From Puniceicoccaceae bacterium (GTDB lineage: Bacteria > Verrucomicrobiota > Verrucomicrobiia > Opitutales > Oceanipulchritudinaceae), in NCBI GenBank assembly GCA_040830765.1, contig JBFOMH010000038.1:1-25051 (forward strand): 25,051 bases of DNA, given 5' to 3'. The notes beneath the pieces were generated by a model, which was not told where the DNA came from, did not search any database, and saw nothing but the letters and a program-made list of their open reading frames with translations. Each line of letters begins with the position of its first letter. The first letter of the stretch is position 1. Both the position numbers and the translations under genes were made by a program. This document shows positions 229 through 3,631 of the stretch, piece after piece.

Positions 229-312
229 TTACTGCTTCCGGCGGCCGTTCTGAACCCATTCGTCGAAGCCAAAGGCCAGTAGCAGTGTTGTTGTCAGGGC
301 GATGATAAACAT
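229..312 (-). CDS. Microprotein B1, 27 aa, MFIIALTTTLLLAFGFDEWVQNGRRKQ (hydrophobic N-terminus, basic tail)
   Basis: Translated by hand. RBS GGAGAACGAACC precedes the ATG. Its first 13 residues are identical to the paralog at 793-852 despite 7 synonymous codon differences. Confidence 0.8.
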   Translation of the reverse strand: MFIIALTTTLLLAFGFDEWVQNGRRKQ

Positions 313-343
313 GGTTCGTTCTCCAGTTTGAAAGTATCGTGGC

Positions 344-433
344 TTAGTAAGCCTGGTTGGCGTTGGCGGCTTCCTTCAGTTCGAAGGCACCGTAAGTGAG
401 AAGGCAGGCAGAGATGAAGATGATGAGTGTCAT
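344..433 (-). CDS. Microprotein A1, 29 aa, MTLIIFISACLLTYGAFELKEAANANQAY
   Basis: Translated by hand. Same length (90 nt) and ending (TAC TAA) as the paralog at 888-977. It starts about 35 nt downstream of a sigma54-type promoter. Confidence 0.8.
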   Translation of the reverse strand: MTLIIFISACLLTYGAFELKEAANANQAY

Positions 434-467
434 TGTTCGTTCTTTTGTTTAAATTCGCCTATAGTAA

Positions 468-483
468 TGCTGGTCGCGTGCCA
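468..483 (-). promoter_or_regulatory. Sigma54 (RpoN) -24/-12 promoter, cassette 1
   Basis: Minus strand TGGCACGCGACCAGCA: perfect TGGCACG, exact GG-N10-GC spacing, with CAGC in place of TTGC. Repeated in all three cassettes. Confidence 0.8.
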
Positions 484-513
484 ACTTTTTTAAAAACTAC
501 CTAAGTAGCTCTA

Positions 514-526
514 TATCAATTCTTTA
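514..526 (+). promoter_or_regulatory. IHF-like binding site
   Basis: TATCAATTCTTTA matches the E. coli consensus WATCAANNNNTTR exactly. It lies in the AT-rich tract between the sigma54 promoter and the upstream palindrome. Confidence 0.55.
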
Positions 527-590
527 TAAACTTTATATATTCATAAACTATTTTGTTTCCTTGGTGCTTTCGACGAAAGTGTCCGGACCG

Positions 591-619
591 GGGACAGGTA
601 TCGTCCCACTTTTGGGACA
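591..619. promoter_or_regulatory. Putative upstream activator sequence, cassette 1
   Basis: GGGACA (591-596), 5 nt, then CGTCCC-ACTTTT-GGGACA (602-619). The same motif and spacing recur in cassettes 2 and 3. Confidence 0.7.
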
Positions 620-708
620 CTCCGCAGTGGAGCCGAAAATGAGAACCAATCCGTAGGATGACCAAGGGTTGTCCTCTCGAAGGCCGCGTCCCGTTTTCAC
701 CAAATACT

Positions 709-742
709 AAAAAAGCGGAGTTCCCCACGAACTCCGCTTTTT
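709..742. terminator. Bidirectional intrinsic terminator closing cassette 2
   Basis: AAAAAGCGGAGTTC-CCCAC-GAACTCCGCTTTTT, a perfect stem with A/T runs on both sides. Confidence 0.85.
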
Positions 743-792
743 CCAAGCGATGACTTGTTGTTGATCTCAGCGATTAACGCTCCTGGTGGCTT

Positions 793-852
793 TTACAGCT
801 CACTCACCCCAAGTGCCAGGAGCAAGGTTGTTGTCAGTGCAATGATGAACAT
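793..852 (-). CDS. Microprotein B2, 19 aa as read, MFIIALTTTLLLALGVSEL (28 aa ending at 767 if one base is missing near 795)
   Basis: RBS GGAGAATTTATTC precedes the ATG. Paralog of 229-312 with only synonymous changes in codons 1-13. Confidence 0.7.
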   Translation of the reverse strand: MFIIALTTTLLLALGVSEL

Positions 853-887
853 GAATAAATTCTCCGTTGGTTGAGGACCGGTTGGGC

Positions 888-1132: not shown

Positions 1133-1161
1133 GGGACACTTCCCGTCCCGGAATTGGGACA
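1133..1161. promoter_or_regulatory. Putative upstream activator sequence, cassette 2
   Basis: GGGACA (1133-1138), 5 nt, then CGTCCC-GGAATT-GGGACA (1144-1161). The offset from the promoter is 119 nt, as in cassette 1. Confidence 0.7.
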
Positions 1162-1209
1162 GTCGATCGGGTCCAGTTATTGGATAATTCGATGGTCGGC
1201 AGAAAAGCA

Positions 1210-1238
1210 TTGACCCGGGGAATCCCCGGTCACAGCTT
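1210..1238 (+). promoter_or_regulatory. Possible sigma70 promoter of tRNA-Arg
   Basis: TTGACC-17 nt-CAGCTT ending 20 nt before the tRNA. The -10 match is weak and is overlapped by the imperfect inverted repeat TGACCCGGGGAATCCCCGGTCA. Confidence 0.4.
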
Positions 1239-1258
1239 TTCCTCTCTTTCCGAAACGT

Positions 1259-1333
1259 GCTCCCATAGTGTAATGGATAACACGCTGCCCTCCGGAGGCA
1301 GAAATCGGGGTTCGAATCCCTGTGGGAGTACCA
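1259..1333 (+). tRNA. tRNA-Arg (anticodon CCG)
   Basis: Acceptor GCTCCCA/TGGGAGT, D-arm GTGT/ACAC, anticodon stem CTGCC/GGCAG with loop CT-CCG-GA, T-loop TTCGAAT and encoded CCA. Confidence 0.97.
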
Positions 1334-1455
1334 TTCGACAAGCTCATGGCAGGCCAACGACAAGCTCATGGCAGGCCAACGACAAGCTCATGGCAGGCCT
1401 TCGACAAGCTCATGGCAGGCCACATGCGGCTCACTGCGTTCGCTCTTGGCAGGCC
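1334..1455 (+). repeat. 22-nt tandem repeat x4, (TT/AA)CGACAAGCTCATGGCAGGCC, plus a degenerate partial copy
   Basis: Units at 1334-1355, 1356-1377, 1378-1399 and 1400-1421 share an identical 20-nt core. Partial copy CTCTTGGCAGGCC at 1443-1455. Confidence 0.92.
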
Positions 1456-1487
1456 ACTTTGCTGAACTCGCAAGAGGCCGAAAGGTA

Positions 1488-2258
1488 TTATGAGAGCCAG
1501 CTGATAAGCGTCTGGGCGTCCTGTTGAAATTGCTCAACCGAGTTGTTGGGGACAAATTCAAGCAAGGCATATCGGTCATCGGGAATGGCTGCAATGGAAT
1601 CGAGGCAGGGCTTCCAGAGGTCGGTCCCTTCCGAGAGGGCAAGCCTTGGGAATGGGGGCTTAGGAGCACCCTCCCAATGAAAGACGTGGATGTTGGAGAG
1701 GCATCCCTTGAAGGCTTCGATTTCCTGCAAGCGCTGCTCGAGTGGGCTGCCGTGCGGGGGCTGCCAGTACATCTTGAGGTTCGGGTGCTGGGCAGCTTCC
1801 ATTAAGCGAAGGGCCTCTTCCAGGGTTTCCGTAAAGGTGTTCCGGTGGAACTCAAAGGCCACTTCAATGCCTTTGTCCGCAGCCATGGCCGCCGCCTCAC
1901 GACTACGGCGGACAACCGATTCAAAATGAGTTTCCGACTTTTCCTGGGTCAGGGATCCGGCCCAGATGCGAATGACAGGAGCGCCGAGTGCCTCAGCTGC
2001 CTGCAGGATAGGTTCAAAGGGTACAGGTTCCTCATCCGCAGACTCCCGGCCCATGTAATAGGATCCGTACCCAGCGACCTCAAGTCCCGCCTCCCGGGTT
2101 TGGTCCCCCACCTTGCGGGCATTTTCCAGATCTTCAAGGGGGACGTGAACATCGCTTCCCCATTCAATACCTACCAGGCCAGCTTCCGAGCTTAGCTGGA
2201 TTAAGGATTCGGGAGTTTCGTCACGGAAAGTTATCGAGCAAATACCGGGTTTGATCAT
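1488..2258 (-). CDS. Sugar phosphate isomerase/epimerase (xylose-isomerase-like TIM barrel)
   Basis: 256 aa with GIEW, IRIWAG, AFEFH, NIHVFHW and LLEF motifs typical of the AP-endonuclease-2 / xylose-isomerase-like barrel. Confidence 0.8.
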   Translation of the reverse strand: MIKPGICSITFRDETPESLIQLSSEAGLVGIEWGSDVHVPLEDLENARKVGDQTREAGLEVAGYGSYYMGRESADEEPVPFEPILQAAEALGAPVIRIWAGSLTQEKSETHFESVVRRSREAAAMAADKGIEVAFEFHRNTFTETLEEALRLMEAAQHPNLKMYWQPPHGSPLEQRLQEIEAFKGCLSNIHVFHWEGAPKPPFPRLALSEGTDLWKPCLDSIAAIPDDRYALLEFVPNNSVEQFQQDAQTLISWLS

Positions 2259-2357
2259 TTGGAGTAGTAGAAGGGGTGAACTGGAGTCCGGGCATGGCCC
2301 AGGGGTGAGAGGAACGTAAGAGCTGTGTCGGTTCAGTAGACTGGGGTGTCGCCTGCT

Positions 2358-3362
2358 TCAGGCTATAAACGCTACGGCTTCCCGGGAAATCTCGTGGTGG
2401 AGGGGTTCGCCGGCCAACCAGCGATCCATTTCATCGATAATATAGGCTGCCATCCGGCGAGCCTCGGGACCCATTGAGCCGGCCAGGTGGGGCGTGAGGA
2501 CGACATTGGGCAAGTCGAAGAGGGGGCAACCGGTTTCCGGTGGCTCGGGATCGGTAACGTCGATACAGGCAGTGACATCTTTACGCTCGCGGAGGAATTC
2601 AATCATCTCGGCCTGGTTCATGACAGCCCCACGGGCCGTATTGATGAGGGTCGATTCCGGTTTCATCCTGTCGAGCAGGGCGCGGTCGATAATTCCCGTG
2701 GTCGATTCCTTCAAGGGAAGATGAATGGAGACCACGTCACAGGATGCGAAGATTTCCTCCATGGAGGCATACTTAATGCCATACTCATCGGCTAGGCGAT
2801 CGTCCGGATGGCCAGTGTAAACGAGCACCTGTAAGTCGAACGGCTGCAGGAATTCGCAGAGCTTGCGGGCGATTTGGCCAAAGGAAACAATCCCCACCTT
2901 GGAGCGGTAATTGCCAGGTACCGGCTTGTTGCATCCCCAGAACTGCGGGTTGTCCTCCTTGGTCAGCTGCATGTATTTCCAGCCGTGCTTCAGGCTATAG
3001 AGAATCTGGGCCAGGCAGAACTCAGCAACTGGCACGGCATTCGCCGCAACGGCATTGGTAATGCGGATACCGCGGTCCCATGCCGCTTCTGTCATCAAGC
3101 CCTGGATGGTTCCAGCTCCATAAAAGTACATTTCCACCTTCGGCATCGCAGCCAGGAGCTCCTCATCCAGGATGGCCCCGCCCCAGGAGGAGACTATGAC
3201 TTCAGCCTCTGCCAGAATGGACGTGTGTTCGCGCCAGTTCTCCCGCGTTACCAGGGGCTCTGCCATGTCAAAACGTTTGGCTATCTCCTTACGTTCGGAA
3301 TCCCCATACACCCGCTGCAGGCTGTTCTCCGCACAAAAATATACGCCCCTTTTCATTGTCAT
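2358..3362 (-). CDS. D-isomer-specific 2-hydroxyacid dehydrogenase
   Basis: AVPVAEF, DVVSIHLP, LINTARG, DVTDPEP and LTPHLAG supply the catalytic Arg/Glu/His. The Rossmann motif reads GIVSFGQIA. Confidence 0.9.
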   Translation of the reverse strand: MTMKRGVYFCAENSLQRVYGDSERKEIAKRFDMAEPLVTRENWREHTSILAEAEVIVSSWGGAILDEELLAAMPKVEMYFYGAGTIQGLMTEAAWDRGIRITNAVAANAVPVAEFCLAQILYSLKHGWKYMQLTKEDNPQFWGCNKPVPGNYRSKVGIVSFGQIARKLCEFLQPFDLQVLVYTGHPDDRLADEYGIKYASMEEIFASCDVVSIHLPLKESTTGIIDRALLDRMKPESTLINTARGAVMNQAEMIEFLRERKDVTACIDVTDPEPPETGCPLFDLPNVVLTPHLAGSMGPEARRMAAYIIDEMDRWLAGEPLHHEISREAVAFIA

Positions 3363-3486
3363 AGTGGTCCTGTTGTCTGACCTTAAGGTCTAGCATCACC
3401 CGTTATCAGCAACTGCCGAACCATAATTATTGTAGGATTCGGAAAGGAGAAATCGGCTGCGATGGCAATCAATCTGGCAGCAAAAC

Positions 3487-3519
3487 AAAAAAGCGGGACC
3501 CGGGAGTGGGTTCCGCTTT
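3487..3519 (-). terminator. Intrinsic terminator closing cassette 3
   Basis: Minus strand AAAGCGGAACCC-ACTCCC-GGGTCCCGCTTTTTT: a stem with one mismatch followed by a U-run. Confidence 0.75.
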
Positions 3520-3553
3520 GAGTCGGGACAGCGATAAGCCTATGAAAGTGATG

Positions 3554-3631
3554 TCAGGCCCGGAGCGCGTCCTTGAGTTCGATGGCTGCGAACGTCAGCA
3601 GTAAGGCGGTGTAGATGATGATGTAGGTCAT
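3554..3631 (-). CDS. Microprotein A3, 25 aa, MTYIIIYTALLLTFAAIELKDALRA
   Basis: RBS AAGGAACCAACA precedes the ATG. Aligns without gaps to A1/A2 (MTxII, LLT, ELK[ED]A) and has the same promoter architecture. Confidence 0.8.
   Translation of the reverse strand: MTYIIIYTALLLTFAAIELKDALRA

Follow-up and report, generated by a model that had tools for sequence, protein, structure and literature searches.

At its start, contig JBFOMH010000038.1 of the Puniceicoccaceae bacterium assembly GCA_040830765.1 carries five open reading frames (ORFs) for hydrophobic peptides of only 19-29 residues. This raises the question whether such minute ORFs are genes at all and, if so, what controls them and what their products do. 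We analyzed the whole stretch of 25,051 nt (the window), together with the source genome (G000) and its relatives. A sequence-only reading had proposed that the five ORFs, three of type A (A1, A2 and A3) and two of type B (B1 and B2), encode one family of single-helix membrane peptides with an acidic residue at position 18. Indeed, all five ORFs are present on the minus strand where that reading had placed them (Table 1). B2 was missed by the ORF lister, because its 19 residues fall below the 20-residue floor of the program. The gap-free alignment from Met1 proved correct as well, with I4, S/T8, L11-L12, a small residue at position 13, an aromatic residue or Leu at 14, G/A15, E18 and L/W19. 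Residues 1-16 are free of charge and a basic n-region is lacking in all five peptides, as had been noted.

DNA and profile searches recovered orthologues in the same layout in 9 of 13 genus genomes, the source genome included. The alignment comprises 34 peptides from the genus loci and from G092, which belongs to a different family of the same order. These peptides fall into three kinds: long A peptides of 29 residues that end in ...ELK(E/D)A-x5-Y, short A peptides of 24-25 residues that at times occur solo, and B peptides of 19-27 residues, whose genes are invariably located 3' of an A gene. Glu18 is present in 33 of the 34 peptides, the sole exception being a Gln, and it is found without exception in B peptides. 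A second Gln18 variant was found in a metagenome locus (L080). Pairwise differences at codon positions 1, 2 and 3 amount to 0.26/0.19/0.44 in A genes and 0.33/0.18/0.54 in B genes, with a pN/pS of 0.39 for A (153 pairs, 18 genes) and 0.33 for B (66 pairs, 12 genes). The excess of third-position changes, together with these pN/pS values, identifies the A and B ORFs as protein-coding. Furthermore, start codon, stop codon and reading frame are maintained in every copy. When a profile built from A peptides is aligned to one built from B peptides, 22 columns match without gaps, starting at Met1 (probability 95% and E 3.6e-8 in hhalign), and none of 200 column-shuffled B profiles reached the observed score of 29.4 (shuffle mean 7.8 +/- 1.9, maximum 14.2). 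The proposal that A and B form one family had named two findings that would count against it, a loss of E18 or of the hydrophobic block in homologues and a likeness of A and B due to composition only. Homologues retain both features, and the similarity exceeds what composition can account for. Consequently, A and B belong to one family with a conserved acidic position. We conclude that the A and B ORFs are real genes, encoding predicted single-helix micro-proteins of one lineage-specific family.

Residues 1-17 of the peptides are uniformly hydrophobic (mean Kyte-Doolittle value ~2.0) and not amphipathic. A short polar tail begins with Glu18. In A peptides its net charge is 0 or -1 (neutral or acidic), and in B peptides it is often basic. 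Conservation along the peptide shows helical periodicity, since only 13 of 10,000 shuffles reached the observed moment at 100 degrees. This test was run on 30 of the 34 rows; one B peptide with an N-terminal extension and the three G092 rows, which carry a 3-residue insert, were omitted. I4, S/T8, L11, L12, G15, E18 and L19 all fall within one 120-degree arc of the helix. With its small residues (Ser/Thr8 and Gly15) this conserved stripe resembles a helix-helix packing surface in the membrane, and may act as one. Hydropathy and periodicity are thus compatible with the single-helix membrane peptide suggested earlier, an assignment that we likewise read from the sequence. For B, the positive-inside rule would predict an N-out/C-in topology, which is uncertain for A.

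How are these genes controlled? When aligned, the upstream regions of the three window units turned out to be strongly conserved. Each unit consists of a double activator site, an IHF-like site, a sigma-54 promoter, an untranslated region (UTR), gene A, in some units also gene B, and finally a terminator. The upstream activator site (UAS) combines a perfect GTCCC-N6-GGGAC palindrome with a second GTCCC-type site, which is weaker and lies 7 nt further downstream. Between UAS and promoter lies an AT-rich CAA-N4-TTA element, which we take to be IHF-like from its resemblance to the consensus. The sigma-54 promoter follows the consensus TTGGCACG-N4-nnGCA, with GG and GC 10 nt apart, and leads into a UTR of ~25 nt, often GGCGAATTTAAACAA, that is conserved among several copies. 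The spacer between A and B measures ~30 nt in two of the three window units, and the A-B intergenic sequence is not conserved. The units are short (~130-270 nt) and end in a GC-rich hairpin with a U run. The UAS is positioned 132-146 nt upstream of the -24 element at 20 peptide promoters, which stem from ten other loci as well as the window, and at 19 of these the distance is 132-137 nt. Four promoters of exporter operons, described below, display the same architecture with the UAS 124-125 nt from the -24 element. Within positions 1-4100, we found no sigma-70-like promoter for the peptide units and none on the plus strand. Each unit is an activator-gated sigma-54 mini-operon, and that these are real genes under the control of sigma-54 and an activator is, in our view, very probable.

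Short, terminated, multi-copy units with an activator site and a sigma-54 promoter are also known as regulatory RNAs, namely the Qrr1-5 RNAs of Vibrio under LuxO. The units described here could be of that kind, with ORFs that are incidental or with an RNA of dual function, and the UTR conserved in several copies would suit such a role. However, in contrast to Qrr, the units encode conserved peptides under purifying selection. Third-position variation and pN/pS, the preservation of start, stop and frame in every copy, the unconserved A-B intergenic sequence and the lack of an Rfam family all argue against an RNA function, which we regard as highly improbable.

We then ask which activator might bind. 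In the source genome, loose sigma-54 matches paired with a palindrome (at most 2 mismatches) 40-220 nt upstream yielded 50 candidates. The perfect palindrome is present at exactly six of the 50, and all six are spaced at 123-135 nt. These sites comprise the three window units, a further peptide unit on contig C23, a site in front of an exporter operon (C9:8399) and a site in front of another micro-ORF (C20:83673). A whole-genome scan (40 contigs, 3.99 Mb) revealed one extra A copy, A4 on C23, and no members beyond A4 and the five window ORFs. In the C23 unit, A4 is followed by the gene of a 110-residue secreted protein that consists only of a TonB C-terminal domain (PF03544, 34.8 bits). Since no terminator separates the two genes, a periplasmic TonB_C-like protein also belongs to the regulon.

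The C9 site directly follows two genes, which encode a response regulator of the NtrC family and a histidine kinase, and directly precedes an operon for a HlyD-type adaptor, a MacB/DarD-like ABC ATPase, three duplicated permeases of the ADOP type (753, 810 and 711 bits against a family cut-off of 622) and a TolC-like channel. G004, G009 and G012 show this arrangement too, from regulator and kinase through double palindrome and sigma-54 promoter to the exporter. A peptidase domain was not found on the ABC protein. Adaptor, ATPase and permease have DarC, DarD and DarB (darobactin) and lactococcin-972 type exporters as their best or near-best NCBIfam matches, all of them sub-threshold. The regulator scores below the cut-off of every named NCBIfam equivalog (LuxO, 358 bits versus 800). 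The kinase possesses only two hydrophobic segments, residues 14-39 and 40-68, joined by the linker DYPLK, of which D, Y, L and K are invariant across four orthologues; cytoplasmic domains follow. Because it is devoid of a periplasmic sensor, this kinase must sense something in or at the membrane. A complex prediction of two copies of kinase residues 1-125 with an A peptide returned a score of 0.00, which speaks neither for nor against binding, for a peptide that with fewer than 30 residues lies outside the calibration.

The micro-ORF unit on C20 (G000:C20:83450-83830, L018/L083; orthologous loci L084-L090) is ~200 nt long and occurs in 8 of 13 genus genomes. Its promoter combines the GTCCC palindrome with CTGGCACG-N4-TTGTT. 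The product is a basic peptide of 34-37 residues that is not hydrophobic and has a Cys in most species (for example ...CFAKVPIVYSRLISVS). A conserved hairpin and the sequence CUAGUAAnAAGCCUGG mark the 3' end of the unit, for which Rfam gave no match.

A second lineage allowed us to compare motif and regulator. G092 encodes three relatives of 29-30 residues, in which the hydrophobic stretch is extended by three residues and the motif reads Q-E-(L/Y/F), and their genes are preceded by GTTTC-N6-GAAAC instead of GTCCC-N6-GGGAC. The same GTTTC-N6-GAAAC motif, with the same ACTCAGA spacer, is also found 5' of G092:C26, a paralogous regulator-kinase-HlyD-ABC locus, and TRSSFYRRI is the recognition helix of the regulator encoded there. 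The closest G092 homologue of the source genome's regulator (61% identity) keeps the recognition helix SRSAFYRRL, and in G092 a GTCCC double palindrome sits between a gene for a loop-less kinase and an ABC-ADOP operon. Helix type and DNA motif therefore pair up in two lineages, and this is the main support for co-regulation. The motif at the peptide genes is in both lineages that of a kinase/exporter module, and the regulator of that module would be the activator that binds. We consider it likely that the peptide units and the exporter share one regulon. In G092:C6 (L094:1102-1341, minus strand), the GTTTC-N6-GAAAC enhancer of a peptide unit also faces a divergent sigma-54 promoter. The 80-residue protein whose gene this promoter drives resembles PspB in layout (a transmembrane segment at the N-terminus plus a coiled coil), although its match to Pfam PspB (E 0.043) is below the cut-off.

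Taken together, we propose that the membrane-sensing kinase would phosphorylate its sigma-54 activator, the NtrC-family regulator, which would then bind the double palindromes and switch on exporter and peptide units. Upon induction the peptides would be made in large amounts and would enter the inner membrane, probably N-out/C-in, placing Glu18 at the cytoplasmic interface. The conserved face (I4, S/T8, L11/L12, G15, E18/L19) might pack against another transmembrane helix, which could belong to a further peptide (A with B), to the co-induced pump or to the kinase, and the peptides might thereby serve as envelope-stress effectors or modulators. Within this scheme we infer the identity of the activator as well as membrane insertion, topology, partner and physiological role. 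The sequence-only reading had held that sequence alone cannot choose among the possible roles, and we agree. A membrane-resident packing helix, rather than cargo or toxin, is what we favor tentatively, with a confidence slightly short of even.

Several observations weigh against this proposal. Regulator and peptides are found together in G000, G004, G007, G008, G009, G011 and G012, but G005 and G006 have the peptides without the proposed activator. In G006, which is 97% complete, the regulator was not found. Its gene in G005 has a frameshift and survives as a remnant that is fused to part of TolC, although three peptide ORFs, the UAS and the promoters look intact. Conversely, the regulator is present and no peptide genes were found in G003 (84% complete) and G010 (92% complete). 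The G010 regulator is 98% identical and only a tRNA matches positions 1-4100 of the window in this genome, so that the absence of the peptides is indistinguishable from an assembly gap. Neither regulator nor peptides were found in G001 (68% complete) and G002. Contig C7 of G005, a genome of 2.1 Mb, has lost the kinase and ADOP genes (L049:~5400-7000), and a different TolC-HlyD-ABC-FtsX operon lies downstream.

A different activator also has to be considered. Immediately upstream of the C20 UAS lies the end of a second two-component operon, which encodes a regulator, two unknown proteins, a kinase and a beta-propeller protein. The regulator of this operon, with the recognition helix SRDFIRYRL, occurs in all 13 genus genomes and could be the true activator. 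We rate it below the C9 regulator, because its helix-turn-helix differs and the pairing of SRSAFYRRL with GTCCC recurs in G092, and because the C20-type -24 element of G005 has decayed (TGTAAC) although this regulator is intact.

The RNA data likewise call for caution. Three RNA runs and one DNA run from one study were mapped on positions 1-4100. Expressed as word depth summed per assembled, unstranded contig, which measures neither expression level nor strand, the A1/B1 region (275-411) reached ~18,000 in RNA run X5 and ~165,000 in X6, the A2/B2 region (823-959) ~1,200 and ~118,000, and the enzyme genes at 1508-3425 0-31 and 32-148, respectively. The DNA run X1 was flat at 5-20 throughout. 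A 2,072-nt contig without differences demonstrates that the organism was present in X6. The libraries are of the oligo-dT type, in which bacterial RNA is captured via internal A runs, and such a run at 193-198 adjoins a contig end at 200. Given oligo-dT capture and unstranded, summed contigs, we state only that the units are represented far above their neighbors and claim no fold-change. Two contigs, 638 and 438 nt long, extend across terminator 2 into unit 1, which leaves room for some read-through. One RNA contig ends at 3652, at most 2 nt from the start predicted by the -12 element of unit 3, which is a weak hint. Adapter-joined contig ends at 435 and 978/979 are located 1-2 nt upstream of the A1 and A2 start codons; relative to the start that the sigma-54 -12 element predicts, they are shifted downstream by ~22 nt. 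These ends, again a weak hint, could reflect processing to a near-leaderless mRNA or a library artefact.

Very high transcript levels and up to six gene copies would fit a bulk secreted or structural product better than a stoichiometric regulator. The peptides might then be exported cargo, that is, leaderless hydrophobic bacteriocin-, pheromone- or surfactant-like peptides that the MacB/ADOP-TolC exporter expels from the inner membrane, with the two-component system supplying induction. The layout is similar to that of class II two-peptide bacteriocin regulons or of the staphylococcal phenol-soluble modulins (PSMs) and their Pmt exporter. In class IIb bacteriocin and PSM regulons, too, several small-peptide operons, often paired, have one regulator-binding motif in common with an ABC exporter operon and a kinase/regulator pair; here, the HlyD-ABC-ADOP-TolC operon carries the UAS, as expected of a dedicated exporter. 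This reading stays alive because of the RNA signal, the copy number with A-B pairs in tandem, and a regulon made up almost only of exporter and small-peptide operons, in which five of six promoters drive micro-ORFs. The sub-threshold matches of the exporter parts to darobactin and lactococcin-972 type systems point in the same direction, and MacB-type pumps draw their substrates from the periplasm or the outer leaflet. However, the hydrophobic residues 1-17 are neither amphipathic nor cationic as a mature peptide of this type would be, a Gly-Gly leader was not found in the peptides, and the ABC protein is without a peptidase domain. An immunity gene is not evident either, which separates the locus further from the class IIb and PSM regulons. 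Moreover, conservation is confined to one helix face, as in membrane packing, and G005 retains the peptides after loss of its ADOP exporter locus. On balance, we consider export as cargo rather unlikely.

In a more specific version, the locus would be the diderm equivalent of the peptide circuits of Gram-positive bacteria. Leaderless, ultra-hydrophobic A/B pairs would be the main products of a regulon under a loop-less, membrane-sensing kinase and its sigma-54 activator, and MacB/ADOP-TolC would extract them from the inner membrane. Once released in an animal-associated niche, they would serve as signals or as agents that act on membranes, and they may also be the intramembrane ligand through which the kinase receives feedback. 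This version is speculative, and we think it a little less probable still than cargo export in general.

The sequence-only reading had also listed a type I toxin among the possible roles. Toxin-like peptides made under stress would form pores or leak helices and lower the membrane potential, leading to growth arrest or persistence in the manner of TisB, here with an activator as the gate. At 19-29 residues the peptides fall within the size range of the hydrophobic type I toxins (at most 60 residues; Ibs/Sib, TisB/IstR, Hok/Sok), and their hydrophobicity, tandem copies, narrow range and intergenic position recall Ibs, ShoB and TisB. However, the promoter is activator-gated and neither an antisense promoter nor an RNA family was found, and the option has little support for this reason. 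Specifically, an antitoxin RNA was sought as a plus-strand sigma-70-like promoter within 1-4100 and as an Rfam family, with no result for either; as the RNA contigs are unstranded, an antisense RNA may still exist. Rfam returned only noise (best match Atu_C9 over the terminator, E 0.46), and PADLOC gave no match. A lethal product would hardly be expected to give a high RNA signal in natural samples, and co-regulation with an efflux pump suggests protection rather than self-harm. We regard a depolarizing toxin as quite improbable.

For the membrane-resident packing helix, the closest parallels are small regulatory membrane proteins. MgrB-PhoQ, SafA-PhoQ, AcrZ-AcrB and KdpF-KdpABC likewise involve proteins below 50 residues with one hydrophobic helix, transcribed under a signaling system. 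The conserved helix face found here would suggest packing against a partner, as in the MgrB/AcrZ/KdpF class, and control by dedicated signaling is seen in the 20 peptide promoters and in the motif that covaries in two lineages. Unlike this class, the A/B peptides come in four to six copies per genome and in A-B pairs, they are under sigma-54 and enhancer control and constitute most of their regulon, and they have no sequence relation to it. The Psp system (PspF; PspB, PspC, PspG) shares the logic of sigma-54, enhancer and IHF driving small membrane proteins with an envelope-stress output. In contrast to Psp, a response regulator that is controlled by phosphorylation and has its own kinase serves as the activator here, and Pfam and NCBIfam revealed no homology of A or B to PspA, PspB, PspC or PspG. 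As far as the available parts of the sources on the Bce modules of Firmicutes go, these modules also place a two-helix, minimal-loop kinase, of the intramembrane-sensing type, beside the FtsX/MacB-fold ABC transporter that it controls. They differ in having an OmpR-type instead of an NtrC-type regulator, the host here is diderm with a HlyD adaptor and a TolC-like channel, and those same parts describe no counterpart to the micro-peptide operons. As sequence homology, an antisense RNA, a leader and amphipathicity were all not found, membership of A and B in the MgrB class or in the Psp, Bce, bacteriocin or type I toxin families is not supported.

How widespread is the family? Among 251 sampled genomes of the order, verified members occur only in the genus and in G092. 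The order-level profile search gave matches at E <= 0.05 in 12 of the 251, of which those in the genus genomes and G092 were verified. A match in G028 was inspected and is unrelated, and six further matches (E 0.002-0.05, mostly inside open frames of 87-792 residues) were discounted. In 401 sampled genomes of the class, members were found in the genus only (2/401). A scan of one genome per species across bacteria and archaea confirmed 6 of 17 pattern matches, five of them in Opitutales/Oceanipulchritudo metagenome-assembled genomes; the sixth (L076) is an 11-residue N-terminal chance match in an unrelated context. Six of 186 pattern matches were confirmed in 241 million metagenome records. Distant relatives may be missed by these scans, because the patterns used genus-derived motifs. 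Pfam holds no family for A or B (the best match, FTR1 at E 0.14, was treated as noise), NCBIfam, PADLOC and a PDB profile search returned no match, and PHROG gave only noise-level matches (E 0.064 and 0.23). Homology to a curated small-subunit family such as KdpF (PF09604) was not found in Pfam, NCBIfam or PDB, and an ESM Atlas search with a 30-residue G092 peptide reached a best score of 0.81, which is under the useful range. The public protein collection contains some 29-residue copies, unnamed or labeled 'hypothetical protein', and lacks the shorter peptides. Literature searches returned no description of such peptides, and the available passages of a preprint on squid-associated Verrucomicrobia (10.64898/2026.01.08.698421) make no mention of sigma-54, RpoN, small protein or hydrophobic. 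According to these searches, the family occurs only in Oceanipulchritudo-like Opitutales and has no match among known families.

Table 1. Features of the peptide units, the associated regulator and the upstream tRNA genes; positions refer to the window unless a contig or locus is named.
Feature	Position	Strand	Detail
Terminator, unit 1	150..195	minus	GC-rich hairpin + U run; -27 kcal/mol, z -4.4, 0/200 shuffles as stable
B1 ORF	229..312	minus	27 residues, MFIIALTTTLLLAFGFDEWVQNGRRKQ; B-type orthologues known
A1 ORF	344..433	minus	29 residues
Sigma-54 promoter, unit 1	468..484	minus	TTGGCACGCGACCAGCA, GG/GC 10 nt apart
UAS, unit 1	579..621	minus	GTCCC-N6-GGGAC + weaker site; 134-135 nt upstream of -24 element
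Terminator, unit 2	709..743	minus	hairpin
B2 ORF	793..852	minus	19 residues + stop, MFIIALTTTLLLALGVSEL
A2 ORF	888..977	minus	29 residues
Sigma-54 promoter, unit 2	1010..1026	minus	TTGGCACGCAGCCAGCA
UAS, unit 2	1121..1163	minus	double palindrome site
Terminator, unit 3	3478..3519	minus	hairpin
A3 ORF	3554..3631	minus	25 residues, solo short A type
Sigma-54 promoter, unit 3	3665..3681	minus	TTGGCACGCGTGAAGCA
UAS, unit 3	3777..3817	minus	double palindrome site
A4, sixth family gene	contig G000:C23, start codon 27013	minus	MTLILFISACLLSYGAFELKEAVQHKNAY
A4 + TonB_C unit	G000:C23:~26490-27013 (L019:6492-7014)	minus	no terminator between the two genes
NtrC-family response regulator	G000:C9:5522-6907		receiver + sigma-54 AAA+ + Fis-type helix-turn-helix domains
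Upstream tRNA genes	1259-1333, 3909-3993; L019:7336-7420		

Three of the four peptide units in the source genome have a divergent tRNA gene upstream (Arg-CCG, Leu-CAA and Leu-CAG). The order tRNA-Arg(CCG), peptide array and lpdA is syntenic across the genus, and we set aside a functional link between peptide units and tRNA genes, as the order is merely syntenic genus-wide. The window starts ~150 nt past terminator 1, so the contig breaks where lpdA is expected. Directly downstream of tRNA-Arg, positions 1336-1422 contain four tandem copies of a 22-nt unit, CGACAAGCTCATGGCAGGCCAA, with 95% matches. Positions 4100-5344 encode a 414-residue secreted protein with 135-nt (45-residue) tandem repeats of the form ...GDLPGG...FS..A.AVSADGSVIVG..., without a Pfam match; these repeats presumably resemble the HAF extracellular repeat. 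On the minus strand at 5350-11432 follow a MarR-family regulator and an RND efflux set (HlyD-type adaptor, AcrB-family pump and outer-membrane factor), which is ordinary and unrelated by motif to the peptide regulon.

Compared with the sequence-only reading, the sigma-54/activator architecture, the link to a two-component system and a MacB-type exporter, and the sixth gene copy are new. Proteins below 30 residues are mostly invisible to annotation. This locus offers a complete circuit of kinase, sigma-54 activator, enhancer motif, exporter and four to six micro-peptide genes, and these genes appear to be strongly transcribed in natural samples. It provides a way into what the ADOP/MacB permeases of Verrucomicrobiota and Acidobacteriota transport or sense, and into the signal that loop-less histidine kinases read in diderm bacteria. 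If the diderm peptide circuit were true, the A/B peptides would form a new class of exported peptides, ribosomally made and unmodified, and would be the first cargo to be assigned to permeases of the ADOP type.

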